This document shows, in pieces, positions 16,237-51,632 of a stretch of 64,000 nucleotides of DNA. Under the pieces are notes generated by a model. That model made no database searches, was not told where the DNA came from, and was given only the letters and a program-made list of their open reading frames with translations. The first letter of the stretch is position 1. Every line of letters begins with the position of its first letter. Source of the stretch: Perkinsus olseni (Eukaryota); NCBI GenBank assembly GCA_013115125.1, contig JABANN010000009.1, forward strand, positions 1-64,000. Direction: 5' to 3'. The position numbers and the translations under genes were made by a program.

Positions 16237-19200
16237 TCACCGCTCCCTCAAGCGGGCTAGCGAAGGACAACAAGCGTTGATCACAGAAACATGGAAATTG
16301 AAACGTTCATTTGTTGGCATCATGCAGCCACTGCTCAGCAAGATACTCCAACCCGTCTTGCGACGTCCCTGTATTGAATTTTCTCGGAGGCTTCCTGCCA
16401 CGTCTCGGCCTCGGCAACTTCGAGCCAAGGACCAAATGAGGATGCACCAGCGGTCCCTGAAAGAGGTATCTCGGCCGAAGGGGACAGCGCACACAAAACG
16501 CCTAGCCTCCCACGGGCAAGAACGGGGTGGACTTACGTCTGCCGAATGAATGTCCAACCGCCGAGTCATTCGATGTTCGATCAGCATCAGCACATAAGCA
16601 TCTTCTGCTGAGAGCAGAACCGCTGCAGCGGACAGGGGCCGGAAGTCCCAGTTGATATCTCGCCGCTACGAAAACTCGAAGCTGTATTGATTGTGGCGTG
16701 CGGATGTACAGCTGTTACCCGTATCTTAGGTTCACCGGGGGTGAGTATCATTTTGGTGCTGTCCTCCTTGGCAACATAATTATAAAGAAGAGCACGAGAG
16801 CTCATCAGACCGCCATGTAGCTCTATCTCATGGGACAGGCTAGCCGGCACTGAGCTGGCTCCACGGGCGACAGCTTCATGCTCTCGGGCCTTGGCGATGG
16901 CTTCCGCTGAAACATAACACATGAGAGAGAAACTATTGTTTGCCGCTTAGATGCTCTGATACTGGCACTGAAAGACTGAGAAGCGTCACAAAAACCCAGA
17001 TAGCCGTGGTGATTTGGCATAAAATCACAGACCTCGTGGCGCAATGGAAGCGCGTCGGTTTCCGGAGCCGAAGGTTGCGGGTTCAAGTCCCGCCGGGGTT
17101 AATTTTCTCACTGATATCTTCTTGCTGTAACATCATTTCCGCGACCTCAGTCGGATCAGTGATTCCATTTTCTTTCCACCGCTCAACCTTCCGTATCCGC
17201 CGCTGACGAAGATCGACAACGTTCGTGTACCTAACAAATATTCCAAAGCAATTCGAGTCGCCACGTCACCCCAGGTCGCTCGAGTTACAAACATGAATAA
17301 AGATACGTTCGCGCCCTATCCCACTTGATCTTCCGCATATCCCCGACGTCCCTGTCCGCTGCCCAGTTCGATGCCCGTAGTTCATCATTTGCATAGGCCC
17401 GGATTTGCTCCGAGTCGTTCCAATCCAGCTGGTCCTCCTCCTCGTCGACCGCCAACTGTGTGCCACTTGGGTCCTAAAGTCCCAACCTTCATATATCGAG
17501 GCCATTAATAGACAACTTACTCCTTTAAAACCATACATGAGCGTGTTCAAGCGCTGCAACAAATTGGTAAAAACCATCTGAAAAAGTACCGCATGAAGAT
17601 GCCCAGCGGCGATACGTCCCCAATACGCAAACTTTGCGAGCGGTGGGCTCCTTCAACAGCCAGTCGAGTACGAACTTGAGCGTTGTTTGAAAACCCGCCG
17701 CAGACATGATGTCGCTGTGAAGACACGATATGTCGATGACGTAGGTAGCGCTCGGAGTCGCGATAGTGAACACAGACGGCGGGAAGGGGATATCATCTTC
17801 GGCCTCGTTCTCCTGAAGAGCTCGAGAAGTATACCCGAATCAGCGAGGATGTCACCTCGTAGTTGAGAGCAACAAGCCAATCCCGACAGGTGGGGCTGCC
17901 GAGTTCGGCCAGCTTGCGGTTATGCTCTTCGAGCTCACGCCGCATACGACGGTACATCGCCGCTAGCTGGGCCGGGCTACTAACCTGGCAGTAGCCGTGC
18001 ACGACCGAAGCAACCCCGAGGGCTGTACCAAGTAAATTCTCTCCTCCGAAAGTGGTAGAAGCTCATCAAAAGGAAGGTCTGTGTTATCGACACTCTCCAG
18101 TGCATCAGTGGTGGACTCGTCCCACACCACCATCTCCGTCTCGTGCAGCTCTTCGTCATCGCTACCCTGGAAATCTTCGTACCGCGGCGCTTCTATCATT
18201 CTCGCTTCGTTAGTCTCGCGGTCGATACCTCGTCAAAGATAATGGAAATTTCGAACGCAATGAAGACGCTACTTCCGGCTGCCTCCCAGACAATAGTCGT
18301 GACCGTCTCATAAGCCCACTGATCCAGCAGGAGCCCCGTGTCCGGATCTCGCGACCTCAGATGGCTGAGGGATGGCCTCCAGCAGCGTCACCACTCGGTC
18401 GACTCACTCGACACACTCCCGCCACACTGTCCCTTCGCTATCGCCCGGAGTTTCCGTGGCGATGTGCTCGAGAAAGTTCCGAAGCATATGAGAACTGCGT
18501 CGCCAGCAGATCTCTTCAACAGCCTGAATCTCGAGGCTTCGATCACTTTGAACCAGCGTGTTTGAATTACTCGCTTCAAACTCCACTGGCTACCCTCGGC
18601 CACTGGCTCTCTGAAGTCCGTCGGCCGCATCGCTAACAGGAGCGATACACCGTCGAACGTGACGTGGTCGTGCTTGTTCAGACGACAACTCATTATTGTG
18701 TCAAAATTCGGGCCAGTCAATTTTGTTACATCCATTGGTAACCTAAAGATACTCGCTACCCCGTTTCTGGAGAAGTTGTTCTCTCCTTACTTTTTGTAGA
18801 CCGTCATGAAGCCATACGGGCCGGCGGCCTCCAAGATAAAATTCGGGTCGAATTTCGCGATGTTGCCACTTCGATTGATGCCGAAGCTGCAGCAGGGCGA
18901 TTTTATGCTACCGGCACGACCACAACCGATTCGCGTACCGCAGCAGGGGCTGATAGACCATGTCCTTCACCAGCTGATACTGTTTCCTCTTGATCTTCGG
19001 AGCGACGCGCTTCACGAGGTCTCGATTGAGAAGGGCGAAAATGTGATGAGATTTCGGGTGGGCGAAGTGCCTGAGGCTTCGCCCACATTTTCGGAGATTT
19101 GCCACGGGGCCCTTACCGGTCGAGCATCAGACTGATCGCTACGTAAAGTTCACTTTGGAGTTGATCGACTGCGGCGACTCTGTCAATTGGTTCTTTGGTG

Positions 19201-19945
19201 CGTTGGGCATCAACCGCACGCATCACGACATTAACAACAAGGTCCTCCAGTTTACCTGCATGCCGTGGTGGAAATAAAAGGCGTTCAAAAAAGTAGAGAA
19301 AATTTGAAACTACGGCCCTCCCAAAGCTGCCTCGCAAGGACAATCGCCATCATTTCCGCGTGGAGCTTACAATTTTCCGGTAAAGTTACCCCTGAATACT
19401 AATGTTCCAGAACAAGACAATTTGAGTCGCTCGAGCGTGCCTCCGCTCACCGCCTACAGCCGATACTTATCCCTACGGGCAAATCTGCTGCCGGAATTCC
19501 CTGCTACAACAACCGCTACGAGATAGACGTATGAATCACCCACTTACCCCTGCTGCTCAGCCGGGGTACCAATTTTACAAGAGGCTCGTTCGCATAGATC
19601 GTAAATGTAGGTGCCGTACCATAGCCAGTAGTAGGGACCTCGAAAAGATACGCTAGGGCACCTTACGAACACTCATTGGGCTACTTGGGGATCGAGAGTA
19701 GGGCTGGGGTGCTCTAAAGGCGATACAACGTTAATGAGGTGATCACGCTCCTCCACGCTCAGCTTGACGTCGTCATCTGCAAGAGGTAGGGACACGAGAC
19801 CACTGCCTTCGCCTGCAGGCAAGTTGACAGCCTTTCCGGTAGGTCTTCGCAGTAGGGCCCCTGTTACCCCGCTGAACCAACGGATAGAGAGTCTCGCAGA
19901 GGGAGATCGAAAAGTAGCAGTCCCATACAACATCAAGCCTGACAA
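16237..19945 (-). CDS. Multi-exon protein with a C-terminal DEDDy-type (Mut-7/EXD/WRN-like) 3'-5' exonuclease fold and degenerate catalytic residues; ends approximate
   Basis: WLVALNYEV (ExoI-like), FTIATPSATYVIDI, LDWLLKEPTARK, and a spliced exon reading RRDINWDFRPLSAAAVLLSAEDAYVLML (ExoIII-like NWxxRPL....AxDA). The join across intron 16907-17111 (QQEDI-T-EAIAKAR) is in frame. Confidence 0.65.
17030..17101 (+). tRNA. trnR-CCG: tRNA-Arg(CCG), inside intron 16907-17111 of the minus-strand exonuclease-like gene
   Basis: GACCTCGTGGCGCAATGGAAGCGCGTCGGTTTCCGGAGCCGAAGGTTGCGGGTTCAAGTCCCGCCGGGGTTA: acceptor GACCTCG/CGGGGTT, anticodon stem TCGGT/GCCGA with loop TTCCGGA, T-loop GGTTCAAG, followed by TTTT. 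Confidence 0.93.
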
Positions 19946-20328
19946 AATAACGAAACGTCGTCAAGACTGGACAGTGGAGCGCGGCGAGCCCAGAAAGAAG
20001 CTTCGGGTGGCTTTCCGGGACGAGGATCTCGAAAGTTCTGACGAGCAAAAGCTGTTACAGTAGTATGATGGAAAAAGCATAATATCATACCAGGGAAAAT
20101 GTTTGGCAAAGCACGCTTTCCCATGATCAAAATCCGCCGGAAAAAATATAAAACGCTTTTTCATGATATGGGAGCTTGGGTTAACTGTATTGCGACTCAC
20201 CTCTAGAACTACTTTGCGACGTACATCTCCGAGCGCGCAAAAACCCACCGTCCGAAAGTACGTCGACCGGGTACTCTGCCAAACAAGCCATGACGAGGGA
20301 AATACAGATTAGCGCGAACGACGCATGA

Positions 20329-21575: not shown

Positions 21576-21925
21576 TTGGGGATACTGAAAGGAGGACCTC
21601 ATAGGTTATGAGCTATGAGTCCACCCGAGTCCTCCAGGCTTCGGGATGAGATCGGATAGTTGCGCGACTTCATAACAACAGAAAGTGGCGAGAACAGCTC
21701 AATACCACTCAGAGTAACAAAGTTTAAATATCTCGAACGTCCGACATCAACAGGACGAGAGCTGTAATCGATAAGCACGGCGACCATTTTGGGGCGAGCG
21801 AGATTTACATTCTAGCGGAGCGAAGGACTCTTTGATATTTCCATCAGCGCAAGATTCGTCGCTTGGTCGAACTGCGTGCAAGTCGCCTTATCGTCGCTTT
21901 GGCAGATTGCTCCTCTTTTGACATC

Positions 21926-23503
21926 ATGGGAGAAGGCGAAGGCGGCCTCGACAAACGAGTTGAATTCGTTCTGCGGAGAATCTACGCCGTTTTCGGGTAA
22001 GTCGACGAGTTTTGTATCTACCTATGGTCGACCTTAGATACTCCAAGTACGACAAATTCAAGTCTACCATCTTGAACCAGAAGGAAGATTCTCCCTTGAG
22101 AGCCATCGAGACCTTCTTAGATGACCCCGAGGTGCCCACCATCCCTAACAATGGTTCCATACCATAACTTTCGTTACTCTCAGTGTACAGCCTTCTTCGC
22201 CTATCAAGGCTCAGGCGAGAGTCTCGTCGCGACCACCCAGAGCCCGGGTTCGGTCGCTCAGATCAAGAAGAAAGTGCTGATCGTCTGTCGAGCTAAGGTA
22301 AGTGCCCTGGGTCAATCTGAGGCGTCGATCAGAAAACCAATTCCGAAATTTAGAGTCGCTTTGGAACTATATCATTTCGGAATTCATTCGAAAATTTGCT
22401 TTCACGCGGGAAATGCGGTTTCAGAATCGATTCTGAAGGTGCAGCAAACTAGTACTGAAACTCAGCATCGCTTGTGGACCCCTATTTCACGAGCAAAAAT
22501 CAAACTCAGAACAGAGTCTGAGTTTCGGAATTACTTATCGAATGGCTTTCTTATCAACTGGCGTTGTGTCAGGCGGAAGTTGAGATCTCCGCGGACAACA
22601 TGGTCGATTCTATCGTCGTCCAGGAGCTCTCCAAGAGGTTCCTCGAGAACATCAACAGCCTCCTTAACGGGGCGTAAGTCACGTCATCTTGATTCTTCAT
22701 GATGCTCTCGCGGGGACTAGTGTAAATTATACTTTGCATGCTAGTCTACGGAGAGAGACTCTCCCGATGGGGGGGGAGATTTTCCAATCGCGAGAAAATC
22801 TACGAGATAGCGTGGAATCCACGAACAGCGAAATTTTCCAATCGAAATTCTCCGATTTTCAATCGGCACAAAGATTTTCCATCGCGGCCTTTGAAAGGAA
22901 GCGGAAGTTCCTTTTTGGTGCATTCTCGCTCATCGCCAAAAATTTGTATTACATACGACGGTAATCGGGCTCCCGAGGGGCGTTTTAATCGGCATCATCA
23001 AAATCTGGCCGTCTAAGAAGTCGGCAGTGGGACTCGGTACGCGAGTATTCGAACTTGGAATGCTGAGCATGAGCTCAGCCACTGTTCGCTTAGAGATAAA
23101 TCGACGGTGCGCGAAATTAATGACCGATTTCCACTTCTACGGGCGAGGGGTGAGCTCGGATAGTGCCTTTCTGAACCACCTTCGTGAAGCGAGAAGCTGA
23201 CGCCTTTATTGGGAGGGTTGTTGGTGGAGAATTCATGATGACGACAGAAATTTAGTCCGGTGTGGAAACTTTGTGGCAGCGTTCGGGCTGAGTGCATAAC
23301 GCAACAGAGAACTCATCGCTCAGCCATTGGATCTGACAGCGAGACCTCGGTGCGTTCGGAGCGACTTGCGCGTCACAGTCGGGGCAAGGCTTGCTCCGGT
23401 CTTGCTAGCGACAGCGTTGGGCTCGAAACTGGTACACACTGACCTTGATGAAGTAAAAGTGGAACCGGAAACCCCGAATACAGTCTTTCTGTTCGTCAAT
23501 TTT

Positions 23504-23564
<61 letters not shown>

Positions 23565-26500
23565 GCTCGGTTCGGCTAGAGCCTGTGGGCGTATCTTAGG
23601 TCGATCATGGTCATTGATAAGGTACTGTTCTGCCCTGTCGAATCCTTTGAACCAGCGAGGTTGGTCGGACTTGATTTCCAAGGACCTCCTCGGCAAGTTC
23701 TACGGATTCCTCTCGACGCTTCACGTCACTCATGGACTGATGGAAGGAAGAACTGTAAGTTTGCGGAGTTGGCGGATTTTTGGTATGGCAAGGATTCGTC
23801 GGCACTACAATCTGAAAGGGAAAAATGCAACATGCTAAAATGAGGCCACCATGCCTAGTAGCGCAACTCTCGGCGATGGGGAGTGATGGCTGCCTCGCCG
23901 ATCGGCCTGGTGGCCCCATTTTTTGGGGAATTGCATTTTATTCGTGTAGGGTTACGTCATTATCTGGTATTCCATAGAAGGAAGACTACTCGAAAAAATT
24001 GTGGCCGCTATTCCATGTCGGAGAAAACTCAACAGCAGCAGTTATCAATTCTTCGACTGTCGTTCTCTCCTTACTTACCCTCGTCGTTGCGTGCGGCATA
24101 GTGGCCTCATTTTCCGTTACATTTTGGTATCGGTTCTCGCCAGGTTCTCCCGCTGCCCCCGAGAGAATCCACTCAGCCGTCTCCGCCGTCGGACGGCCCC
24201 GGAATGCAGGAAACGGTACGCGTCTTTTCGAATATTTTTATCAATACCAACTTTTTCGCAGATCGCGAAGGACAAGATCCACGCCCTGGAGAGCTCCCTG
24301 ATCACTTGGACGAAGCAAGTGAAGCATGTCTTGAAACAGGAGCCGGAGGCGGCTCTCAAGGACCCGACGAGAAATCCTGAACCGATGGTCGAGGTCGAAT
24401 TCTGGAAGCTCAAGGCCAACAACCTCAACTCGGTAGTATCTTAGGTTGATGAATACGTGCCACGGAATTTCGCGGCAGAGAAGGGAATTTAGGAGTTGTG
24501 GTCGTGCGAGTAGCATAAATTTTTCCTGCAGCTTTCGAAAGGAATGTCCTGCATGAGGGAGTATCGATTTTCTTGCGGAAATTCCGATTTGCAAAAAAAC
24601 ATCTTCTTTGTTTTTTGAGCTCAATTGTATCGGAAATTTCTGGAGTGAAATTGCGGTTTTGCGAGTATCTTTCTCACTTGCCCAGGTCCATGATCAACTT
24701 GAGGCGGAGGAGCTGCGCAGAGTTCTCAGCATCTTGAAGGAGAATAAGAGTACTTATGTCGAACCATTCCGGAGGCTGCAGGAGGAAGTTGAGCGTGCTC
24801 GTGACGAAGCAAATGATAATGTCAAATTTTTATCGTCATTGACGAAATATTTTGAGAAGTTGGCGAGCGACGCGGTCGACTTTGCGGATCTGGAGAAGCT
24901 GTTCGACCCAATCCTGCATACGATATTGTTGGTCTGGAAGCACTCGAAGTACTACAACACTCCGGCGCGACTGGTTGTTCTGATGAGGTAATAATAACGC
25001 GGGAATGTTTTTTAATACCAAATTTCGACGAATTCTTGACGAAAGGGAGAGATGGAATTTTTCTACGCGTAGAAACGTAAAAAGCGGCAAAAACTTAATT
25101 TTTCGGCGTGAAACTGATTTTTGTGCTCTCGGTATCACTCGAATCTGCCAGCGGTTTCTGGAGGCGAGAACAGTTTCAGAACCAAACTTCTCTGAACTTT
25201 TGACGGAAGGGGTAGACGGACTTTTCCTATACGAAACGAAGCTAGAAACGTGAAAAACTGCAAAAAGTGGAAACTCTGAAAACTGATTCTACTGGCGTGA
25301 AACTGATTTTGGTGCTCTCGCTATTGTCAGGCAAATTTGCAACAGCATCATCGCCCAAGCGTGTCGATTTGTTAACGGTCCTCAAGTGTTCGCGATGATA
25401 GCGAACGAAGAAGCGAACGAAGCTGTCGAGAAATTGGAAAAAACTTTGGAAATTTGCACGGCGTTCCGCGACAAGTACTTTTTTTACAGAGATGTTGCTG
25501 AGCAACAGGGCAAGGAAGGTGGCTGGAGAATCCAAACCAGTGCCCTCTTCGTGAGGTTGGATGCCTTCCGGGAAAGATGCCGCGATACTCTCGATTTTAC
25601 TAAGACGATCGTGCAGTTTTTCAAACTCGAACGGGTCGAAATCGGCGGGACGAAGGGCCGGGAGCTGACCGCGTCGCTACAGCAAGTTTTCGAGGAGTTC
25701 AAGCAGGCTGTGGAGGTCTTCCAGGCGGTGTCGTATGATATCATGGACGTCGGGGCGCGCGCTTTTGACCACGATTTTTACAAGTTTCGGTCTGCGGTTA
25801 AGAACTTGGACCAGCGTCTCGGTGCGGTTTTGGGCAGTGGGTTCGACGATTTGGATACCATCCCGGGTCGGCTGAAGTTGTTTGACGCTTTCGAGGGTCT
25901 TCTGGAGCGAGCGATATTACAGGATGAGCTGGAGAGGAGGTTCGCTGCTCTGTTGGGGCAGTACCATGAGGACCTGATCGAGGTGCAGAGGCTGTATCTT
26001 GATAATAAGATGAAGATTTGCTCGGCTACCGATGATGCTCCCCTGTTTGAAAATGTAAGAATCGGGCGAATTTCGGTAGGTTGGTCGTTTAATCTTGAGG
26101 GTCGTGGAATAGATTTCCTCTGTTTCCTCGTGAAAACCGTAATCATTCCGGAAATTTCCGGATTAATTCCTGTTTTTCAGATGCCTCCAGTAGCCGGTGC
26201 TATCTACTGGGCTCGGTCTCTCCGTAGTCGGGTGGCAGGACCGATGCCGAAAATATTGGTATACAGCGAGATGGTGAAGGAGCAACCGGACGATTTTGCG
26301 GAGGTTGAAAGACTGCATTCGGCGCTGTGCAAGATTTTGGACGACTTCGAGCAGCAGATGTAAGGCTGCGTTTTTTCTGTCTCTTTATGACGGTATGAGA
26401 CCTATGATAAGCGATGGCTATGAAGACGCGGTTCGGTAAAATCTTTTTGGAAGGGGGCGCTAAGTGTCTTATATCTGAGCTGGATCTCCTGCCTAGGTTT

Positions 26501-29500
26501 GAGGCTTTCAATATGGTATTTGGCTTCTCACGAGATGAAAAATACGGGTTGTCGCTTTTTTGCGGAAAACTCAACTTCACGTAAAATCCGGAGTAAAATT
26601 TCCTTGGCCTATGGATCTCGGAATTTTCTCGGAAATATCCTTTTTCGGCGCTGTGCAAGACTTTAAAGAACAGGTATGAAATAACGGTTTTCTCTTTCTT
26701 CTTTGATATGATAAAGATCGCGGTTGAGCAAGTCTCAATGATTCATGAGGTTTCATCTTATGAGTAATTTTTTCGGAATTATCTTTTTTTCCGTCGCAGG
26801 TTCGAAGGTTGGGAGGCCGACTGTGTCGACTCCGCAAAGGAGAAGCTGAAGATGCGCTTATTGAGGCGTTTGGAGAAGACTGGCACTCTCAAAGTCAATT
26901 TCGATCCTCAGCTCGTTCGGCTGCTGCGAGAGGTTCGATATTTCCTTCTTTTCGGTCTGGAGGTGCCGGAAGTGGCCTTGGAGATGTATCAGCGGGCGGA
27001 CACTTATCGAGAGTGGACGGGGAGACTCGACGTGGTTGTGCAAAAATATAATTCTGTGCTGACGGAGTTGCTACTGGTGGAGGAGCCCCTGTTTGCGGAT
27101 CGGATTCAAAAAATGGATACTACTTTGTCGCCGGGTTTGGTGGATCTACGGTGGAATCGAGAAGATCGGATACCCGATTTTATCGCACTCGCGGAGGGCG
27201 TCATTGGTGATGTGTCGTCTGTTGTGGATGTTGTAAAGTGCAACCTTCGGAAGATCTCTGCGATTTTGGCGAGGTGGTGCCAAGCGCCTCTGCTGGAGAG
27301 AAAACCGAAGCCGATGTCCGCGGAAGATTTTGATAGCGTCCATAAAGCGGCGGTTGGCGTGAGGCTTCACATGATGACGGAAGATGGCAAGGAGATTCAC
27401 AAGCTGATCAAGGACAGCTCGGAGGCGCTGAAAGTCTCAAAAACGGCGGAGACTTGGAAAAGTTACGTCGATTTTGTCAACAACATCGTCATTGAGGGCC
27501 TGGTCTCGGCTGTGGCCGTTTCGCTACAGTATCTTTGCGAGATCTTGGATCCTCTCATAATAGCTCGGAATGAAATGCAGCCTCTCTTTGATGTGAAAAT
27601 CGAACTGCAAGATTCTGAGATTGTCTTCGAACCAGCCTTCACGCTGGCAAGCGGCTCCCCAGGCGGCCTGTGTCTGAGGGGGGTTATTGACGGATGGTTG
27701 AAGGACTTCTTTGCCATCGGAACAGTTATGCAAAGGCTTGACTCAGGTAGTGGAAGGGAAGGGTCGCATCGGTTAGGACGGAGTTACACGCCCGATGGCC
27801 ACGACGGTCTGGAAATTAATAGACCGATCGAAATAGAAAAAACCTTAAAAAATCTGGTCTCGCGGTTTTGAAGAAACCCGTAAATTTTTCAGGCACTGGA
27901 GACTACCTTAACGAGTTGAAAGAGCACTTCCAGATGCAATGCCTGCTAGCTTTGGTTAGCGAATTGATCGATAATACTGAGATGAAGTGCCTGGAGTATC
28001 GACAGAAGTTCCTGGAGCACTCCTTCTTGTGGCTGGATTCAATACAAGATTCGTTTAATACCTTCCTGGCGGATGGCGCTAAGGATCTTGTGGAGAACTT
28101 CGAGGAGGAGGGGGTAAGGCTGCGCAATTAATTGAAAAATTAGAAAATTGATGCGTTTTTTTCACGATTTCGATCCTACGAGTGTATAATATTTTCAACT
28201 AAGTTTTTATGAAGAAGAACTCCCCTTGAAGCGAGAAAGTTGAAAATTTATTGCAACTTTCGCGCTACGTAAAACCTCAATCAGAGGGCGTGGATTTTTC
28301 TACCGTCATAGTAATACCATAATTTTCGTTATTCACCCTACGTGGAGCGCGTACACTCGAGCGACGATGTTGTAATATAGTTGCTCTCTCTTGGATTCCA
28401 CTAATTTATAGAAAATCGTTGCGAAAATTTGATCGAATTTCCCAATTTTCCCTCATGAATTTGAGTACAACAGAAGAAGCGCTGATGGATGATCCTTAGG
28501 TTGCCTTTAACGAGATTATGGCGATGATCGGAGTTGATTTGGGGGAGCCCATTCCTCCTATGGAAAAGTTCGACAAGGCGGTTACGCGATTCACCCAGAT
28601 GAAGACTAGCATCAGCAACTTGAAGACCCCGGTCGATATCCACTGGCTGCGAATCAACATTCAACCAGTTAAAATACATTTAGTGCAATTCGCAGGAAAA
28701 TGGGAGTACACGTATACCAACTACCTGCAAGAATTTTGCGAGGGAAGAATTGGTTCGCTGTGTCGATTTATTGACAAGGTTAATAACGGCCTGACCCAGC
28801 ACAGCCCGGCGGACGATCCGGAAAATGAGAAGCTGCTCTACGCCACAATGACGCATATTAGGGACGTTAAGTTGGCGATGGAAGCGACGAAATTGCTGTT
28901 TAATCCGATCCGGGAGCAAGTGCAAACTCTGAAGAAACACGGAGTTGTTTTGCCTGAGGAGCAGCTCCAGGAGTTGGACTTGGCCCCTGCGCGATGGGAG
29001 GAAGTTATAAGAGCGGCGTTTGATGAGAAGGAAAAGATACTGCCGTTGCAGAGCGCGGAAATGTTGAAGATACGCCGAAAAATCGACGCCTTTGCTGGCG
29101 AGGTCGCGGAGTACCGGAGTACCTTCTTGCGGGAATGCCCGTTCGCGGCGGAGCACACGTACGAGGAAGCGTACGGGAAGTTGGACGACTTTTATGAGAG
29201 GACGATGGCGATGGTGGAGAGGGCGAAGGAGTGAGTTGAGTGGAATCTTTGCTGTGCGCGGTTTTGGTATCTTTCTGTGGGGCATATTTTGCTGTGATTT
29301 GGGAATTAGTTTCAGCCGACGTTCGCCTTGTTTAATTTTGTGGTATTTTTCTTCTTTTTTTAGTTTTGTGGAAAGATACTCGTGCGGAATCTTCGCTGTG
29401 CGCAATTTCAATTCTCCTTGACTCCTATGACTTTTAAAGATACTATCGCGGAATCTTCGCTGTGCGCAATTTCAATTCTCCTTGACTCTCATGAATTTTA

Positions 29501-38500: not shown

Positions 38501-41500
38501 GATTACGGAGTTGAAGTCGCTCGGAAAACCACCGCCGGATTGTGTAGAGGTCACAAAGGCGGTTATGATTTTACTGAGGAATGAGAGGAAGAATTTGGAC
38601 TGGAAAGCGGCACAGAAAATGATGAACAACCCGCAGGCGTTCTTGGACGAAGTTATGTCGTTTAACGCTAATGAAATTCCGGACTGGGTGTTGGATATGA
38701 TAGACCCGATTCTGCAGAAAGATTTTTTCAACTACAACTCTATGAAGTCAAAATCGGTGGCTGCGGCATATCTTTGTAACTGGGTGGTGAATATCGTGAA
38801 GTACAATAGAATTTACGTAAAGGTCGCTCCGCTGATGGAAAAAGTTAAAGAATCTACGCAGCAAAAAGAAGAGGCTGAAGCGGCTCTGGTGATTGTAATG
38901 ACGAGGGTTAAGGAAGTTGAGGAGAGAGTTGCAAAGTTGGAAAAGACTTTGAGTGATGCGGTGACGGAGAAGGAACAAACGGAAGCGGAAGCGAACGCTT
39001 GTTTGGCGAAATTGGAGCTCGCGCAGCGTCTGGTGGATGGCCTGGCGGATGAGTATGCTCGGTGGACGCAGACAGTGAAGGAGTTGAAGGAAAAGAGTTT
39101 GACGCTGATCGGAGATTCTATGCTTGCCTCAGCATTCGTTGGGTAAGGGACTGGTGGTGGGAATCTTTATAGTGCGTTCGGCGAGGGTGTGGTAGCGATT
39201 GATTTTATTGGCGTTGCATTTTTGGGGAAAATTCGTCGGAAAATTTGTGGTTGGAATCGGAATCTTGCGCAATTGACAAAGTAGATTTCAGGAGTCGCAA
39301 GAGAGACGATCATCAACAAGCAGAGGAATCTTGAGAATCTTTATAGTGCGTTCGGAGTGGGCATGATAGTTCTTGAGAGAATCTCTAAGGGAGTTTCTCA
39401 GACCTCCCCTGGATTTCACAGGCTCTCCCAGGATTGAATTAGACGTGTGAAAGACGACTTTGTGAGGGGCTGTTGAACCTTAGGAAAGGCAGTCTGTTCA
39501 AAGTCGAATTGAATATATTATTCAACAATTTTCGACGTCTCTGGGGCAATTTCGTGGCGCGCGAGAAATCAGGCAGGTTTGTTGGTGTTCAGATACATCA
39601 GTCCCTTCTCCGCCGCTTTCCGTCTCGATCTGTGGAGCAACGTCTGGACGGGAGATATCAAGGAGAAGGGCATTCCCTTCACGGAGGGCGTCGACCCGCT
39701 CACTGTGCTGGCCTCGGAAGCAGACATTGCTATGTGGAAGAACGAAGGGCTGCCGGCGGACAGGATTTCTGTGGAGAACGCAGCGGTTGTGACAAGCTGC
39801 GCTCGATGGCCGTTGCTGATCGATCCGCAACTGCAAGGTGAGGGAGAGGAGATTGGCGCGTTGTAAAATGGTGGAAATTTTCACTTTTCGAGCGCTGGAA
39901 AATTATCGGCGGAAACCTTGCTCGGAGATTTTCGTATTTGATTATGGAGAGAAGGCATTCCTAGTAATTGGCTTCTGGATGAAAATTATTTTTTGGTAGA
40001 ATTTTTGATTAATCATCTTCCTGTTATCTTTAGTGCTTTGTCTGAGTGTGACTCAGTATCAATCTTGTACTACACTCGGTATCTTTTATTCTGTGAAGTC
40101 CATGCGTCAACCTCGATGAAGAATCTTTCTTCCTGTGTAGGCGTTAAATGGATCAAACAACGGTTGGGCGAAGACATGACCGCCATTCAACTCACCCAGC
40201 CGAACTGGCTGCAGAAGGTCCTCTTCTGCGTGTCGATGGGCGGCCAGCTTCTCATTGAAGCGGTGGGAGAAGAAATAGACGCGATCTTGGAGCCGCTTCT
40301 TGCGAGGTCGGTCGAGCTTCTTGGGAGCAAACGGGAGGGGTTTTTTGGTCAGGCAAGTATCTCGAAGGGGACGAAGTGGGTTTGTGATCAAAATTGGAGG
40401 AGAGGAGATCGACTATGATCAGAAATTCCAACTCATTTTGCAGAGCAAGCTGCCCAACCCTCATTACAGGTAACCAAGGTTTGTGATTTTGTCACTGCGC
40501 CACGAAATTAAGTTGTGGGGAATGTAGTGGTAGAAGGTGGAATTAGTAGATTGGCTGATAGTGAGCGAGATAGAAGGGGATAGTGGAGAGACCTGGAGTT
40601 GACACGGTCGTTCGTGATTGATGTGAGGTGATTCTAAAACTCGGAATCGATTCTGAGTTTAAGAGTTGGTTTCTTGAACAGGGATAGAGAAGACGCAGTT
40701 CTATTGTGTTTATGTGGGCGGCGATATTTTTCTTGGAAGACTTGAATATCGGGCGTCTTCAGGCCGGAGATTGCAGCGCAGTGTACCATCATCAACTTTA
40801 TCGTCACGCCGGAAGGCCTCGAGGACCAGATTCTCGCGATGGTTGTTAACGTGGAGAAACCTGAGCTAGAGCAGCAGAAGCAGGAGCTGGTGAGGCCGTT
40901 GGAGGAATCTTAGGTTGATGCGTGTTGCTAGCGAATTCTTGGATATCTACTCATTTGAATCGTATCAGTAAAAAATTGGGGGAAAATTGATTTCTTGGCG
41001 ACGAAAAAGTGCCGATCTTTCACGCCTCGATAATACGATCGTCAGAATGCAGGAAACGTTTTCTCGTGTAGTTTTTGGTCTTCTAAGGTCAGCAGTGTGC
41101 AAGGTGAAATATAAGATTCTCGTCTGAAGTTCCCGATCACGTAATGATTATAATCTTCATTTTGTCGTTGTGGTAGGTGCGAAAGCAGAACGAGTTCAAA
41201 GTCACTCTGGCTAAGCTCGAGGATGATCTCCTCGCCCAGCTGGCGGCAGCAGACCCCGCCACGATCTTGGATAATGTTGCTTTGATCGAAGGGCTCGAAG
41301 TGACCAAAAAAACGGCCAATGAAATTAACGAACAGGTGGGGAGACTTTGATTTGGCGATCGAAAATTTTTCTATGCGGGAAAAGGCGAGTTAGGTGAGGT
41401 CTAATTGAATTTCGAAAATGTTATTCTTAAATTTTTGTAATTTCGTAAAATTTAGTTGATTTCGGTTGAATTTTGAGTACCATCCATCAGGGTATCTCTA

Positions 41501-44500
41501 CGCTGATTTTCCGATGGTCTTGTACGTTTCGGATTTCCTCTTAATTATATGCAAATCGATCGTCCGATCGATTTGTGAGCGCGCGTCGTTTTCAGGTCAA
41601 GCTTGCCAGCGAGACCGAGGTTCAAATTAACGAGTCTCGAGAACAGTACCGGCCAGTCAGTGCCGAGGGGTCCATGCTCTTCTTCCTCATCATCCAGCTC
41701 TGCTTTATCGAGCATATGTAACGTTCGGTCCCCTCTCGCTGGTCGCGCTTGATGGCATCATTATTTTAAGATTCAAAAATGATAGACGAAAATGTGAATA
41801 TCTTTATTTTTGTATCATACTATAGTAAACATTTATGAATAGAAAAGATATTTTAGTAAATCGGGCAGAAATTTTGCATGCGGTGCGAATGGTACTGTCG
41901 GCATTACGAAAAGGACGAGCGAGGTCATGCTCGCCCTTGAGACAGAGTAGCAACTAGATCGCCTTTCTTAGAGGCCGGGATATGTTATCATACCAAAGAT
42001 TCTTCCGATGGTTAGATATTTTTCATGCAGACTTTTATTGTTATTCCGTAATGATGTGTTTATCTGGTTGGGAGTTGCCGGTGTTCAGGTACCAATATTC
42101 TCTGGACAGTTTTGTGTCCTTCTTGTACCGAGCAATCGAGCGAACGCCGCCGGCGGAAAACGTAGCGGAGCGATGCGAGTCTTTGATATTCACGATAAGA
42201 ATTACCATTTTCCGATGGGTGAATCGTGGCCTGTTTGAACGACATAAGCTCATCTTCTGCGCGTTGCTGACGTTCAAGCTGCTTCAAAGAGGCCTGTTGG
42301 AAGAGACCTATAACGCCGCACAGTATCAGTTCTTGCTAAGAGGGCCGATAAGAACGGACGTGGAAAATCCGATAGGGGACTGGCTGCCGAATGCAAATTG
42401 GTGAGCGCAGGGAAGGGGCGGCATGATTGAATCATCGTATATTTGGGGATGGAGTGGTATCTGATGTTTACGCGTGAGAGACTTGTTGTCGCTATGTTCG
42501 GTTGAGAGAGTGTGGAACATCGTTTTCATCAACGACGTTGGCTAGCGGAATTTTTTCCCCAATATTACGTTGTGGCTTAATCGCTCCTCACGTGGGAGAC
42601 GACTCCTAGCCGTAGGACAGGTTGAAGTTGCGTGAGCTGGAGCAGCAGCGCGGTCCTTGAAAAAAGATTATTATAGCGTGAGACCTGCATTAATGGGACT
42701 GGGATACTCGATAGACTGCCTCTCCTGAGTGCCAAGGGCGCTTCCAGGATCCTTCTTTACGGGTTAATTAAATTCAACCCGAACACCCTCCTCGCGACTC
42801 GTTAATCGGTGAATCATCTCCTTGTTCAGGTACGCTGTGCAGAAGCTGATTGAGCAGGAAGGCTTCGAGTCCTTCGCGCAGAACATGGAGAAAGATGCTC
42901 CCAATCGGTTCAAGGAATGGTTTAACGAGCTAGGACCGGAGGACCAAAAATTGCCATTGGATTGGAAAAAACTGGACAGTCAGCCACTTCAGAAAATGCT
43001 GGTTTTGAGGTGCCTGCGACCAGATCGAATGACGATCATGATGGGTAACTGGGAAAGGAATTTTGTGGCGCGCGAGAATTTTCTGTGAGTCAGGTAACTG
43101 GATTCGCAAGGCCTTGCCACATGGTCGCGAGTACATGGACTGCGATGGCAGCAGCAGCTTTTACGAAGTTCTGTCCAATAGTTTCGAAGATTCTTCCAAC
43201 GTTACTCCGATTTTCTTTATCTTGTCGCCTGGTGCTGACCCGGTTAAGGAGGTGGAGGCTCTCGGAAGGAAGGTTATTCAACTGCAGATCAACGTCAACT
43301 ACCACAACGTGGCTATGGGGCAGGGCCAGGACGTGGTCGCGATGGCGAAGTTGGATATGGGCCACAAGGAAGGCCACTGGATTATGCTGCAAAATATCCA
43401 TCTGATGCCGCGATGGTGCGCGGAGCTCGAGAAGAAGCTCGACAATTTTGCTATTGAGGGCTCCCATCCGAATTTCCGATGCTTTTTGAGTGCGGACCCG
43501 TCTAATGGCATCCCGATTGGTATCTTGGAGAGATCTATCAAGCTCACGAATGAGCCCCCACAGGGACTTCTGGCGAATCTTCGCCGTGCGTTTGCCTTCT
43601 TCAATAAGGAAGATTTCGAGGAGCGAGATTCTAAGGTCAAGAGTATCTTGTTCGGGCTGTGCCACTTCCATGGCGTGATGCTGGAAAGAAAGAAATTTGG
43701 TCCACTTGGGTATAATATGATGTACCCGTTTTCGATTGGTGATTTGAGGGACTCGGCTAGCGTGCTTTACAACTACCTAGAGAACGCGTCTTCGGTCAAG
43801 GTGCCTTGGGATGACCTCAGGTGAGGAGGTTGAAGCGTGCTTCTTGCAGGGGAAAAGATTCCCTGTCGATGCGTATCTTACATGGGTCAACCTAAGATAC
43901 CTTGGTCGGTTTTTCAGATATATTTTCGGAGAGATCATGTACGGTGGCCATATTGTCGACGATTGGGATAGAAAACTTTGCCGAACTTATCTTGAATTTT
44001 TCATGCACGATGAGCTCCTCGATGAAACAGAGCTAGTGGGTCTCTATCAAACCCGGGGGCGCTCGTTCGTTTATTAAAGTTTCTCACGGCCTACGTGAAG
44101 TTCGATTTTTTCGCGTGATTGCGGAATTTTTCTTTCACGTCGCGGGTCAAACTCCATAGTTCGCGCGTTGCTTCAGGAGAGAAATCGACGGGAGATAGAG
44201 TTTTCCGTAGCGCTTTATCTGCGTGTGAGATATTCTGTTCGGTAAACTCGAACCCCTCTATGAATTCACTTGAGCGGATTCGTACAAATTTTCCTTTAAA
44301 AGATGACGAGTGTTTTTCACTAAGAACTCGGCCTCGTTTCTTCGGATGCTCGTTGGTGAGGAGATTCGTCATAGGGCGAATCTTAGAATTCTTCGGTACT
44401 GCCTGATAATATCATAATGCATTCCATGCGATTTTTCAGGTCCCGTTCACGGATCCGTCCAAGCTCAGTTTCCTCTCACCCGCGCCCAGTTCTCATGAGA

Positions 44501-46022
44501 AGTAAGATATCTTCGAGGTCGACCATTGTAAGATACGCTGCCGTTAGATACCTCGAGCACATCGAGCTCATGCCGGTAGAGACGCCGCAGTTCTTCGGCC
44601 TGCATCCGAACGCTGAAATAGGGTAGGGGATTCCAAGGCCGATAGCGATCGCTGAACTTCTCGCAGGTTCCGAACTGCTCAGTCGAACACCCTCTTCCAG
44701 ACTCTCTTGAATTTGGACGCTCGATCGGGAGGGTCCGGTGGAGGCGACGAGGACGCTGGCGAGGTAGGGGTGTAAAATTTTGCGGTTTTACTATGAAACC
44801 GTTGATCGATTTCAGTCGATGTCACCGCTGGCCATGGCGGAAGCTTTCTGTAACGATATTCTTGATGACGTGAGAGACATCAAATTCCCGGTGGACGACA
44901 TCAGCCGGTCCATGCCTGATGAGGAAAAAGGTAGGGGGGCATGTGTTCAGCCTATTATATCATGTGTCACCCCATGAAATTCTGGAGGATACGTTATGGT
45001 CGTGGAAGTAGCATAAAATCGAAAATCTTCACATTGATTTCATTATCACGACGCAGTGGGCGCTAGTTGGTCTAGTATGCTTTAACCCTCAGGTCCGTAC
45101 CAGTACGTCTTCCTACAGGAGTGTAGCTACATGAATGAACTCATCTTCGAGATGGTTCGGTAACACACCTCTTCAGTGTCTATTTTCGTCGACGACCCCG
45201 GCAGGTCCCTTCAAGAGCTGCAGCTTGGCTTCAAGGGAGAGCTGACCATGTCAGAAACGATGGAGAATTTAAGCAACGCTCTCATTCTGGAGATCATCCC
45301 GCCGCGCTGGGCGAAGCTGGCTTTCCCCAGTACTCGACCGTTACGCTCATGGCTGACCAACTTGAAGGAGAGGTCAGTCCTGGTGGAGCCTTTCGGCCGG
45401 TCTCAGTCCATTGCGGTGCTCTCAGGTGCGCTCAGCTCGAGGAGTGGACCAACGACCCCTCCTCTGTGCCGAAGGTCGTCGATGTGTCTAAATTCTTCAA
45501 CCCGCAGTCCTTCCTGACTGCCATCAAGCAGCTCTGTTGCCAACAGCAGATGCTCGAGTTGGATAAACTCATGGTCTTCACTGAAGTCACTAAGAGAGAG
45601 AAATCTCAAATTGAGAGTTTCAGTCGAGAAGGGGCGTATGTCACCGGAATGTTCCTCGAGGTGAGCTTGAGAGCTTCGCTGTTTTCGTGATTCGTTTTTT
45701 CAGGGAGCTCGCTGGGACATCAACGGCAACTGTCTGGACGAGTCGAAACCGAAGGAGATGTTCTGCAAGATGCCGGTCATTAACTGCAAGGCTGGCTTGG
45801 CTGATGAATCGGGAGGCGGAAAGAGCGAGAAGGGGATGTACATCTGCCCCATGTAAGTATTCACGCTCTCTGTGTGTCTGTCACGGATTTTATGTTAGCT
45901 ATTGCACACCACAAAGAAGGCCTTACTTTGTCTTCGCTGCGCAATTGCGTACGAAGCACAGCCCAGCTAAGTGGGTGCTTGCGGGTGTCGCCATGATTCT
46001 TGATATCGGTGTTGCGGTCTAA
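21926..46022 (+). CDS. Axonemal dynein heavy chain, outer-arm beta type (DNAH9/11/17-like); several dozen exons
   Basis: ATG at 21926 ([14 protein letters not shown]); DHC tail exons; P-loops [71 protein letters not shown]; stalk KSLGKPP; C-terminus [19 protein letters not shown]. Confidence 0.96.
23505..23564. repeat. (ATC)20 microsatellite in the largest dynein intron (about 22675-23599)
   Basis: Perfect ATC run; the poly-His and poly-Asp ORFs in the track are artefacts of it. Confidence 0.97.
29372..29555. repeat. 64-bp tandem repeat (about 2.7 copies) in a dynein intron
   Basis: GGAATCTTCGCTGTGCGCAATTTCAATTCTCCTTGACTC starts at 29386, 29450 and 29514; partial degenerate copies near 29242 and 29594. 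Confidence 0.92.
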
Positions 46023-46388
46023 GGCTGCTCGCCCGCATGTTGGAAGAAGGTGTTGTGAGTGATAGTACTGCAGTACTTGCGTTGGCAGTCGAGTCAGTTG
46101 GGTACGGAAATTTGGACATGCGAACATACTCTATACGAATGGCAAAGACCCCGAGATTTCAACACGACAAGGCAACTGAGCTTTGAATCTTTCATCTTTA
46201 AACCTTCCGCCAATTAGCCATTTTCACAACATATCTCGTCAGCTACCAGAATGGATCAAACAATTACGTCAGCGGGTCTTATAAGTGAGTACTAGCTTAG
46301 GCGAACATTGTCCTTAAAACCCGGACTTGAAGTGGGATTCTTTAGTAGCTATCCGATCGGGTGCCACCAGCAAGAAAATAGGACGGAA

Positions 46389-48816: not shown

Positions 48817-50115
48817 TGATAGTGTCTCCCACACTTACGACCTGGAGAGCTACGTTGATGATATCTCGCCCCGGTTTGTGGTTTGTCATGGTTTGGCTTT
48901 ATCTTTGGCCAACTGGAGGTCATTGGAATGTTCTTCAGACATTCCCTTTCTACATCGGTCTTCTATCTTGTACACTTCCTTTCAATCTACTCATGTTCGG
49001 TATGAGTGATATGGTAGACTTTGATGTGGATCAATTGCACGCTCGCAAGGGTAACTACACCTGGGGTGCGAGAGCGAGCAAAGTGGAGTTAGCTCAGCTG
49101 CCCCTCATGATGGCCATCAGCAACCTCTGTCCAATGGTCATCCTCGTAGCGGCTACTGGGCACATGAGCTCACTCATCTGGGTTCTCGGTTTTTTTCTCT
49201 GTAATATCATTTACAACCTGCCCCCCATGGCAGTCGCTCGAAAGGGCCCCTGGGAATTCCCTTGTATGCTCCTCGGGATCTCCTGCATCACGATGTCTTC
49301 GTGCGATGTGAACAAGGTTCCTACCCCGTCAATTGGTAATACCATTGCACAGCTAATCTCTTGGTTCCATGCTTTACGCTGTCGTCGTTAAAGATCCTCT
49401 GGAGTTCGTCTAGGACCCCTTTTCGCTACTATCTCAGAAGTTTAGGAGCTCGATGACGGTAACGGTATTTGATACAGCAATGCCTGAGGATTAATCTGAG
49501 GGAGTTACCTTAACCTCTCTATCAATACCCATCCAGTGTCATTCACCCGACGTCTCCGTTGGTCCTACTTACGACATTTCCTCAGGCGGGTGGATGTTTC
49601 ACTGGCTGGCAATGGCGCGGGGTCAGCTGTTTGGAGAAATTCTCGATATCGAGGACGATGCTCAAGTCGGGAAGAACACTACAGCTGTTAAAATCGGCGA
49701 AATGAGATCTCAGCAACTTATGTTTGCTTTGACTGTGTGTTTAGCCCTGGTAAGGAATGATCCCTCTCCGTTGATCGGATCAACTTGATCCTTGTTGCTC
49801 GAAATCGCGGCAATTCTGCCTTTGAGCCTATCGCGCCGCAACGCGTTCACTCTCGAAAAGCCTGTGTGAAGTATGTTAAAATATCTAACAGTCTCTACTC
49901 AGGTATCCTACATTCTAGTCGGTTCCGTGGTGCTAACTGTCTACTATGTCGTAGATATGGTGCTCTCAGTCTTCTCTCTTCTGGCACCCGAGCGTATAGC
50001 TATTGACGAAGCCAGCTTCAAGTCGAGATCATATGGGCGATGTTCACCTGAACAAGTACTCACTTATAAGATTATCGTTCATGTATTGACACGACTGTTT
50101 CGCTCATCAGCTTGA
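48817..50115 (+). CDS. UbiA-family prenyltransferase, divergent paralog (copy 2); introns 49336-49585 and 49750-49902; start and 3' end approximate
   Basis: ISRPGLW, LPFNLLMFGMSDMVDFDVDQLHARK, YNLPPMAVARKGPWE, GEILDIEDDAQVGKNTTAVKIG; same two intron positions as the minus-strand copies. Confidence 0.82.
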
Positions 50116-51632
50116 TCTGGCTTCATTTTGAGAATTGATGTGCTGTGTCCGCGAAGTTGGCCGATAGGCTAGGGGCGATACCGAATAACTTTTGTAAGTC
50201 CTTCAAAAATTATTTCTCAAGCTCCGTCAGCATTGCCTGGTGGAGCGTATAGGGGATAGATACTCAACTCAACACTTTAAGGACAGGCTTGGAGAGCAGC
50301 TTATCCAAAGCTTAGTCTAATTACTTAGCATCCGCGTGGCGGTGCGACTGATAACACCGCTCATGCGAAGACATGCATGGTATTATCCAGCGTGCGCATA
50401 CTGGAGGCGGTATCCTCCACTGGTCGTGTTCCACCTACTACTGACGGGGAGCCCAACGAAAGGTCCGTGAGCAGCACGAACACGATGAGTATCTCGCGAC
50501 CCAGGATGATCTATACTTTCTATGATCTCTGTCGCTTTATTCTAAGACGGCATTAGGGATAGAATATAAGTGCGTCCTATGCTATATAATTTCCGCTATC
50601 TGAGAAAAACGTGACGTCCCGATCTACTGCATCCTAAACTACGAATAACGGATTCGGTGAACTTACCTGGCTCCCTTGTTGTGAATTGATGCTCGACTGC
50701 TCAACCGGAGTACTCATATAGGAAATTGGGGTACTGAAACCGTAACCGCTGTGATAGCTAATAGCAGCTAATAAGACGCCATCAGCCGCAGCGATGGAGA
50801 CGAGACGCGTCACGTCACGTCACGTGACGAGACGGGTGGGAGCTAGGCGTGCGCACATAGCTGTGGCGTGCGCGCACACGCATCTCACAACACTTGTTCG
50901 CTACGCCGACAGCCAGCGCGAGGAAGCAGCCCCACCCTACGAGACGCCCTAAGCCGTTGTGCTTTAGTTTAGTTTGTTCATTTCTGAACTGACAGTTTAA
51001 CGAGCAGCTCGAAAGACAGCTGGAACGCCGAGTCTATATAGGTGTAAGCCGTTAATTGTTCTGCCTATATGGGGTGAGAAAATGCATTGTGTTGACTAGC
51101 TTCGTATCCTACTAGCTTCGACCTAAGATTCCTAGAGATCTGGTTCGATGCGTAGCGGCCTCACGCTGAGAGCATTGAGCACCTCCTATCGAGAAGAGTC
51201 TCCTCAGGGGACCCGATCTTTAGCTGGAGCTTCGCACTGCTCACTCAGTCATACTGAGGGTGGGAGTCGCTAGCGGCCAGATCCAACGCTGAAAGAACAA
51301 CACGGTCTCGAGAGTTCCGATCTCAGCTGAGAAAACCGTGATGATCCGGAATGGTCATAGAAAAGGGCTAACTAATAAGCCCACGGATGCTCATCGTCCA
51401 TGATTCCACTGCGTAGAGGATACACCGTGTGAGACACACAGAAGTTAGTCTTCAAATTCTGGTGGAAATCTCCTCGGAATACAAGCAACCCAGATATTGC
51501 AACACAACAGTGACCGAACTGTTTAGGGCACGACGCTTACTTCTACGACACAACAACTCGTCGGGATTCAACCGCTAGAGTCAATGGAATCCGCAATGCG
51601 GATAACAGAGCGGATTCAAAGTGGTGACGGAG

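Follow-up and report, generated by a model that had tools for sequence, protein, structure and literature searches.

The 64,000-nucleotide stretch of the Perkinsus olseni genome analysed here (contig JABANN010000009.1, positions 1 to 64,000 of the forward strand) is called the window, and the counts given below are from this single 64-kb window. On its plus strand the region 22.1-46.0 kb encodes, according to Pfam, an axonemal outer-arm-type dynein heavy chain, and this gene (22100..46010, delimited by Pfam, RNA joints, tblastn and motif density) is a motif-dense domain in which the seven-letter word GWATCTT (W being A or T) occurs 66 times. A preliminary description, made from the letters alone, had pointed to a dispersed 14-bp motif concentrated in dynein introns and at splice junctions. 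The finding goes further than that description: beneath the 14-mer there is a heptamer that is under selection even where codon choice in a conserved gene is silent, and this holds within one region of the window.

The Pfam domains found in the dynein gene were DHC_N1, DHC_N2, AAA_6, AAA_5, AAA_7, AAA_8, MT and Dynein_heavy, and the nearest named relatives of the protein were Symbiodiniaceae ODA4-type proteins, in the cluster of P0002 (76% identical). The gene contains more than 30 introns. Splice evidence was taken from GT..AG joints in contigs of one public run (X1), which given these joints holds spliced RNA; 15 of 23 joints were listed and gave the 15 RNA-supported introns, and the model was extended by tblastn with five near-full-length homologues. 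In-frame stops revealed two places at which the model was amended, an acceptor near 26.8 kb and an extra intron at about 37287-37451. The latter is predicted as a 165-nt intron (37287-37451, GTGAGT...TTTTTCAG) that best removes the in-frame stop at 37341 and aligns to gaps of the homologues, and the heptamer copy at 37382 is intronic in the amended model. The sense strand of the locus has more G than C and more T than A. Several A/T-tract words were also more frequent in the dynein locus than at 1-14 kb and 46-64 kb taken together (AAAATTT 39 against 2, GAAAATT 38 against 6, TTTTCCG 25 against 3), an enrichment that partly reflects the T/A-rich introns, and an A/T-tract palindrome TTTTTTC-G-GAAAAAA was found at 32797.

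GTATCTT was the commonest 7-mer of the window, ranking first by count and by z-score (50 copies against 11.3 expected from an order-3 Markov model), and GAATCTT was the second 7-mer by z-score (41 against 13.0 from the same model). The copies of GTATCTT were distributed as 33 on the plus and 17 on the minus strand and those of GAATCTT as 26 and 15. An order-5 Markov model predicted 34.5 of the 50 GTATCTT copies, an expectation that is circular because the hexamers underlying such a model include the word. From the counts of single-letter variants the word was sharply bounded as [G>A][T/A]ATCTT, with G 50 and A 20 at position 1 and T 50 and A 41 at position 2; any single-base change within ATCTT reduced the number of copies from 50 to at most 13, and the one-letter neighbours of the word, barring the G/A and T/A alternatives, were 4- to 25-fold rarer. 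No general flanking consensus was seen beyond the seven letters when the 91 copies were aligned (at most 0.15 bits per column).

The density of GWATCTT was 2.76 per kb in the dynein locus, 1.60 at 14.0-22.1 kb (13 copies), 0.61 at 46-64 kb and 0.07 at 1-14 kb, where a single copy is present, so that the dynein locus is 40 times denser than the first 14 kb. With 66 of the 91 copies inside 22.1-46.0 kb, the earlier statement that the core recurs dozens of times at 22-45 kb holds, as does its observation that the copies lie mostly on the plus strand. Base composition and coding constraints largely account for this skew, which can therefore arise without the transcribed strand being preferred. The idea that the word marks flagellar genes in general was rejected, as a tubulin-tyrosine-ligase-like open reading frame (ORF) at 10.0-10.6 kb is devoid of any copy.

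In the first classification, 14 sense and 7 antisense copies fell within dynein exons, where about 3 of each were expected; after the copy at 37382 had been reassigned to an intron, 13 of the initial 14 sense copies were exonic. The excess was examined in a conservative, stop-free exon set of 11,877 nt of coding sequence with shuffling of synonymous codons as the null (3000 shuffles). The sense word occurred 13 times against 1.24 ± 1.08 in the shuffled sequences, none of which reached 13, and the antisense word 7 times against 2.84 ± 1.50, with 36 of the 3000 shuffles reaching 7. The excess of the sense word at synonymous sites of conserved exons was thus about 10-fold. In the dynein, Tyr-Leu was encoded by TAT-CTT in 8 of 15 cases and Asn-Leu by AAT-CTT in 6 of 20, codon frequencies predicting about 6-7% for each, while the corresponding numbers for the other ORFs of the window were 2/15 and 1/19. 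Among all 4096 hexamers TATCTT was the top outlier of the dynein coding sequence (14 against 2.85, z 7.4), and GTATCTT reached 15.3 times its expectation in coding sequence, compared with at most 4.1 times for 60 permutations of its letters.

Homologue alignments covered 13 of the 14 copies first called exonic, several of them in invariant blocks such as PIGILERS, which means that these copies are not insertions; the copy at 32203 lies in a lineage-specific insert of an RNA-verified exon. A 14-mer-like copy with 2 mismatches (36599..36612, plus strand) encodes K-Y-L-R in a homologue-aligned stretch with small gaps. The exonic copies were located between 8 and more than 600 nt from the junctions and were not concentrated near them. 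Other organisms contributed 80 homologous dynein loci, 986,907 nt altogether, in which neither the sense word (129 against 155.5 expected) nor the antisense word (198 against 240.7) was in excess, and the highest sense density reached in any of them was 0.64 per kb. Given that these 80 loci lack the excess, it is not the protein sequence that imposes the word but this genome. The word in exons is made by silent codon choice and is consequently kept by selection (or strong drive) and not inserted.

In the dynein introns (8.7 kb, including verified, predicted and ambiguous stretches) 33 sense copies were counted against 2.6-6.0 expected from strand-specific Markov models, and 11 antisense copies against 1.2-1.6. 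When only the 15 RNA-verified introns were considered the numbers were 17 against 1.2-3.8 and 5 against 0.5-0.7, respectively, and the word was present in 5 of these 15 introns. For the whole gene this amounts to 47 sense and 18 antisense copies, the antisense expectation being about 4.1. The 3:1 ratio of sense to antisense copies in introns is what the T-rich sense strand predicts, and both strands are far over expectation. Exons gave a similar picture when only the positions that allow the word were considered, 13 of 39 (33%) being used in the sense direction against 3.3% predicted from independent codon use and 7 of 23 (30%) in the antisense direction against 12.4%. Among pairs of copies within 80 nt of each other, those in the same orientation (23 against 9.4 ± 3.0) and convergent ones (9 against 4.1 ± 2.0) were raised alike. 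Ambiguity between T and A at one position is typical for DNA recognition, and together with the near-equal use of the two strands the T/A ambiguity at position 2 favours recognition of double-stranded DNA. The word is sharp, appears to be used independently of orientation and is locally clustered, as would be expected of a homotypic cluster of sites for a protein that binds double-stranded DNA; for splicing enhancers the strand count is in the direction expected (47 sense against 18 antisense), yet the antisense word is also over expectation in exons and introns.

The exact 14-mer GWATCTTAGGTYGA was found at seven sites (23591, 24436, 30316, 34989 and 40905 on the plus strand, 43887 and 51118 on the minus strand) and never in 100 dinucleotide shuffles. 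At up to 2 mismatches to GTATCTTAGGTTGA there were 12 sites against 0.36 ± 0.54, including those at 16721, 22028 and 34755. The 14-mers listed previously were thus all recovered at their positions, and their number is far above chance as had been claimed; the sites at 33088 and 36599 were additional. Of the 10 TAGGTYGA sequences in the window, 7 come immediately after GWATCT, so that the 14-mer is a genuine composite of the word and AGGTYGA. The exact copy at 24436..24449 (GTATCTTAGGTTGA, plus strand) begins 3 nt into the RNA-verified intron 24433-24685, in which a second GTATCTT lies at 24665, 21 nt before the 3' end. Similarly, the copy at 30316..30329 (plus strand) begins 20 nt into the intron 30296-30463, verified by an RNA joint; GAATCTT stands ahead of it at 30305 and AAGATTC follows as the closing arm at 30351, and the two make a 53-nt inverted pair. 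The plus-strand copy at 40905..40918, in the GAATCTT form, begins 15 nt into an intron predicted at 40890-41176 from the tblastn-based model. The exact 14-mer at 23591..23604 (plus strand), a putative acceptor in cis or in trans, closely follows an (ATC)n run, and a possible start codon ATG (23607) comes 8 nt after it; the run is a microsatellite of about 20 units (23505-23565) situated directly upstream of the 14-mer and of this possible dynein start. One-mismatch copies were found on the plus strand at 34755..34768 (GTATCTTAGCTTGA), mid-intron and 242 nt from the 3' end of the intron 34513-34997, and at 16721..16734 in the region neighbouring the dynein gene.

The 14-mer contains ...CTTAG|GT... 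and can for this reason act as a 3' splice site, which it appears to do in at least one intron. The AG (34996-34997) of the exact copy at 34989..35002 (GTATCTTAGGTCGA, plus strand) is the predicted acceptor of the intron 34513-34997, as judged from frame and homology: no other acceptor in the interval searched is both in frame and free of stops, the donor is GTAAGG at 34513, and the peptide joined across 34513-34997 aligns as one high-scoring segment pair to P0131, P0134 and P0121. The previous assignment of this copy to a 3' splice site is supported to that extent. The wider statement that the 14-mers sit at splice junctions applies to 34989 and does not extend to 24436 and 30316, which lie inside their introns and not at the junction. 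The 15 RNA-supported introns have ordinary U2-type GT donors, e.g. GTAAG, GTGAG, GTAGT, GTACG, GTGGG, GTCGG and GTAAC. ORFs end at the TAG of the motif, which had made a U12-type 5' splice site a candidate; such a site has the consensus /RTATCCTT, and GTATCTT equals this consensus minus one C, yet none of the 15 verified introns begins with the word and a U12-type identity was rejected; GTATCCTT was found once in the window. Four introns are exactly 46 nt long (24216-24261, 40307-40352, 44502-44547 and 45853-45898; two RNA-verified and two predicted), and this recurrence suggests that a particular minimal length is preferred.

Beyond the heptamer, the 14-mer forms the conserved head of short repeats, 28-50 nt long and partly palindromic, which lie in introns, make up a loose family and multiply by local duplication. 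The 28-nt unit consists of GTATCTTA, 12 nt and a sequence like TAAGATAC, with related interiors built around GGTYGACC or GGTGAAGC, and units with 8-bp inverted ends were found at 22014-22041, 35655-35682, 35833-35860, 43873-43900 and 51104-51131. The unit at 43873..43900 (GTATCTTA, 12 nt, TAAGATAC; no strand assigned) has perfect 8-bp inverted ends and lies in a predicted 97-nt intron (43821-43917), with the 14-mer on the minus strand at 43887-43900 and its end 17 nt before the predicted 3' splice site. Outside the dynein gene, the unit GAATCTTAGGTCGAAGCTAGTAGGATAC at 51104..51131 (minus strand) was recognised by its 14-mer and inverted ends, and the region of this unit, at 51.1 kb, had no paralogue that could be aligned to compare its presence between tandem paralogous units. 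The variant unit GTATCTA...GGTCGACC...TAGATAC (22014..22041, no strand assigned) lies between the dynein gene and neighbouring minus-strand ORFs, one of which (20631-21380, minus strand) had no homologue among longer proteins. A further variant unit, ATATCTTCGAGGTCGACCATTGTAAGATAC, nearly fills the 46-nt intron predicted from sequence and tblastn at 44502..44547 (plus strand), and 43871-43893 and 44516-44538 form a 23-nt inverted pair (87%) with its arms 622 nt apart. Perfect GGTCGACC palindromes were found at five places (5060, 9323, 12796, 22026 and 44517), two of them in long-form units and three in the motif-poor first 14 kb; GGTCGACC on both strands together with one GGTTGACC variant was counted 11 times against 3.9 expected.

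The introns of the dynein gene enlarge by local duplication, as was apparent from an array of three 64-nt units, from repeat pairs of 52 nt and of 45 nt, and from a tandem copy that comprises an exon end with its donor. The 52-nt repeat (35632..35861, plus strand) has two copies, 35632-35683 and 35810-35861, that are 88% identical, and each copy holds two GTATCTT 14 nt apart as well as one of the 28-nt units (35655-35682 and 35833-35860). In the intron 29231-29621 the 64-nt tandem repeat (29372..29563, plus strand) carries AAGATAC and GAATCTT 14 nt apart in each of its three units. In the intron 34513-34997 the end of the preceding exon is repeated in tandem together with the donor (34471-34522 against 34577-34628, 81%; 34529-34574 against 34649-34694, 80%), and through this exon-end duplication a second, unused GTAAGG donor lies inside the intron. 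The intron 31082-31507 contains the perfect palindrome GTATCTT-G-AAGATAC (31182..31196, no strand assigned) and four further sense copies at 31416, 31426, 31438 and 31487; this palindrome and the one at 43873-43900, both noted before, are real. A second short family, ending in ...GGTCGTGGAAGTAGCATAAAAT or ...GTAGCATAAAAT and having a diverged 14-mer-like head, is present in five copies in introns and the neighbouring region (18889-18926 on the minus strand, 24495-24532, 34534-34564, 34654-34684 and 44987-45021), each on the strand of its presumed host gene. A closing arm (at most 1 mismatch) was located downstream of 9 of 90 core copies, compared with 2-4% in controls, and with the arm at only these 9 copies a terminal inverted repeat was rejected as the main source of the heptamer.

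Introners are MITE-like (miniature inverted-repeat transposable element) intron-generating transposons of Micromonas, Aureococcus and dinoflagellates, and invasive intronic elements of Amoebophrya are treated in PMC7789003. The present motif resembles them in being a short repeat in many introns, with inverted ends in some copies and one copy that is predicted to supply a splice acceptor, in a relative of the dinoflagellates. It differs in that 7-28 nt are shared and not whole introns, in the use of host 5' splice sites, in that no target-site duplications were found and in the selection of the core in conserved exons. An Introner origin was not supported for the core. When the flanks of 14 sites (±200 nt) were compared by blastn-short they matched at the motif only (15-20 nt), apart from one 25-nt match, and a MAFFT alignment of eight intron segments had a mean column identity of 38%. 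No target-site duplications were seen flanking the units in the printed sequences, and no intron-long copies were found. The suggestion in the preliminary description that the core is an Introner-like remnant was not borne out, in view of the U2-type donors of the 15 introns, the unalignable flanks and the 13 exonic copies, and what remains of it is that the long form alone, with its 28-nt units, 8-bp inverted ends and local duplications, resembles a short dispersed repeat.

A separate record of transposition is present at 47.5-62.3 kb in the form of 22-bp scars, composed of bases 1-7 of an 8-mer X, the reverse complement of X and bases 2-8 of X. Seven exact scars were found (48611, 49770, 54714, 54753, 55418, 59186 and 60932) and none in 20 shuffles; another with 1 mismatch is at 54270, and several of the target 8-mers share TTGAT. 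These scars are like the units described above in being small palindromes in non-coding DNA and unlike them in having the 7+8+7 geometry of any 8-mer. The word was absent from the seven exact scars and from the one with 1 mismatch, and only 1 of 19 scar-like sites (at most 3 mismatches) overlapped it (31175). The motif as a product or target of hAT-type excision was rejected, since the scars lie outside the motif-rich domain.

The sharpness of the word and its roughly 10-fold enrichment at synonymous sites argue for selection for reading by some factor. The earlier proposal of a sequence-specific binding site, either a chromatin organiser or a splicing element, is thereby supported in kind, although this evidence does not settle whether DNA or RNA is read. 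We favour, with a probability of about 0.4, a selected recognition word that is read as double-stranded DNA by a sequence-specific protein. The word [G>A][T/A]ATCTT is held at very high density over the dynein gene and the regions next to it, and this applies to exons as well as introns. In such a mechanism the protein would bind the dense cluster of identical sites over the gene body, and the cluster would mark or regulate a stage-specific flagellar gene, possibly by acting on transcription near splice sites. Several observations weigh against this. The evidence comes from one 64-kb window, specificity for the gene was seen relative to the few other ORFs present there, not all of which are necessarily genes, and the gene model is RNA-supported at 15 introns and was amended once, which made the 37382 copy intronic. 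The fold enrichment in exons is about 10 for the sense but about 2.5 for the antisense word, and the near-equal fraction of allowed positions used is based on 13 and 7 events and could be a coincidence. Reading as DNA alone would not predict the placement of the long form: each of the five exact 14-mers that could be assigned to an intron has a splice site no more than 20 nt away (two of the junctions being RNA-verified and three predicted). In 9 of 25 introns a WATC core has its A at 15-24 nt upstream of the 3' splice site, for 2.9 hits expected in this interval, which was chosen post hoc; the core is absent there from the remaining 16 of 25, and most copies lie elsewhere. Finally, no helical or nucleosome-scale spacing of the copies was seen, and no protein binding the word was found in the literature searched.

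Some of these observations are what a pre-mRNA splicing signal would give, and we regard such a signal as a somewhat doubtful but serious alternative. The word would then be a site for a splicing factor, as an enhancer or as part of a branch point or pyrimidine tract, and antisense copies would pair with sense copies as hairpins. The preponderance of sense copies in the gene fits this, as do the sense copies 3-20 nt after 5' splice sites (24436, 29243, 30305, 30316 and 40905) and 20-21 nt before 3' splice sites (24665, 31487 and 40121) of verified or predicted introns, the WATC core in the branch-point window of 7 of the 15 RNA-verified introns (1.85 hits expected) and the acceptor at 34997 supplied by a 14-mer. 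Splicing enhancers are known to cause an excess at exonic synonymous sites, so the exonic excess agrees with them as well. As for hairpins, a sense copy is present no more than 50 nt away from 8 of the 11 antisense copies in introns, and the five transition mismatches in four of the 28-nt units would all be G-U pairs on the sense strand, for which a mutation bias of the G+T-rich strand could suffice. However, a splicing signal does not predict the antisense enrichment in the gene (18 against about 4.1), convergent pairs are no more raised than pairs in the same orientation, the exonic copies keep no proximity to junctions, and two thirds of the verified introns (all but 5 of the 15) are without the word. 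The usual branch-point pattern has a U two bases before the A, which the word mismatches, and ambiguity between U and A at one position is less usual in RNA recognition. Speculatively, both the apparent strand-blindness and the placement near splice sites would fit a factor that binds DNA and acts on transcription close to such sites.

That the heptamer excess is the by-product of a decayed small mobile element (MITE-like, foldback or Introner-like, with ends GTATCTTA) and of local duplications is in our judgement quite unlikely. The 28-nt units with 8-bp inverted ends and related interiors (22014, 35655, 35833, 43873, 51104), the 23-nt inverted pair, the presence of the word inside tandem and dispersed intronic repeats, the excess of closing arms over controls and the cut-and-paste record left by the seven exact scars all speak for it, but it leaves unexplained the 13 sense copies that silent codon choice has created within conserved exons. 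About 90% of the copies are without an inverted partner, the flanks of the 14 sites share nothing past 15-25 nt, target-site duplications were not seen, the motif provides none of the RNA-verified splice sites, the scars lack the word and are outside its domain, and the 20-nt long form had no exact match in public metagenome contigs. Mobile-element remnants account for the long form only. Lower still we place the possibility that the word has no function and results from local mutational or compositional bias or from a translational codon-pair preference. The composition of the locus is distinctive, both in its strand asymmetry and in its A/T-tract words, and the order-5 model would predict most of the GTATCTT copies, circular as that model is; against this stand the rarity of the one-letter neighbours, where we know of no mutational process specific to a seven-letter word, the much lower values for the 60 letter permutations, and the inability of codon-pair effects on translation to act in introns or on the antisense strand.

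The recognition of the word as double-stranded DNA can be extended to a stronger proposal, which we consider unlikely. The heptamer would be a "domain word", a seven-letter DNA word maintained at about three per kb over a 30-kb flagellar-gene domain on both strands, by selection or molecular drive, and a dedicated DNA-binding protein would switch or insulate the domain in the swimming stage. Silent codon choice would provide the word in exons and small palindromic repeats would provide it in introns, and at intron ends it may link transcription with splicing. How genes are controlled in perkinsids and in the dinoflagellates related to them is poorly understood, and no Perkinsus cis-element was found in the literature searched. 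A word that shapes silent codon choice and fills introns points to a sequence-specific reader, a protein or an RNA-protein complex, as a candidate. Should it mark swimming-stage genes, it would provide a first regulatory code for how a shellfish parasite of commercial importance passes through its life cycle; should it be a general intron signal, it would still be an unusual splicing element.

The word was compared with other known systems. It is like splicing enhancers (SR- or hnRNP-type sites) in being short, at synonymous sites, near splice sites, clustered and sense-biased, and unlike typical ones in that the excess is far stronger (about 10-fold), the bounds are sharper, the antisense word is enriched too and the copies are not at exon ends; no splicing enhancer or cis-element of this word was described for Perkinsus in the literature searched, which yielded only an unrelated primer match. 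Bacterial DNA uptake sequences (USS/DUS) are genome-wide and kept by uptake bias. The present word is similar in being sharp and short, in its density of about 1-3 per kb, in occupying coding sequence where the protein allows, on both strands, and in forming inverted pairs in non-coding DNA, but it is regional and in a eukaryote. The AATCT-type CCA1 site is related to the evening element. The evening element AAAATATCT of single-repeat Myb proteins (CCA1/LHY/RVE-type) is given in PMC3060684. Single-repeat Myb sites share with the word an [A/T]ATCT core, the same A/T ambiguity before ATCT and reading as double-stranded DNA. They are plant promoter elements in few copies, whereas the word occurs in dozens within a gene body, and the likeness is a lead only.

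Other identities were rejected for the motif. As a fragment of a tRNA or B box, GGTTCGAANCC was found with at most 1 mismatch at 10 sites against 4.59 ± 2.37, four of these being in two tRNA-Leu genes and none at a motif copy, and an Rfam scan of 21.5-52 kb at E values up to 1 gave no tRNA match. A known RNA family was likewise rejected, the Rfam scan having returned one sub-threshold small nucleolar RNA match (42496-42560) that is not at a motif copy. For a relict spliced leader, the Perkinsus 21-mer as given in PMC9399869 had no match at up to 3 mismatches, and its last 15 nt had one match against 1.92 expected, not at a motif copy.

The remainder of the window contains a tRNA-Leu(AAG) gene in two identical minus-strand copies separated by 47.6 kb (10505-10584 and 58095-58175) and a tRNA-Arg(CCG) gene on the plus strand (17030-17101). 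UbiA-prenyltransferase-like ORFs lie on the minus strand in three tandem units (46518-47438, 51762-52674 and 56447-57368), which are spaced by about 5 kb and share 70-93% identity in blocks of 235-300 nt. Inverted repeats of 100 nt (46277-46376 and 49972-50071, 76% complementary) surround 3.6 kb with a 229-aa ORF that had no Pfam match, and the element at 46277-50071 is possibly a DNA transposon. In addition, a short repeat family is present in both orientations 40 kb apart (14703-14823 and 55338-55484, also 13615-13646 and 53140-53171), with arms of 24-48 nt that are 79-90% complementary.

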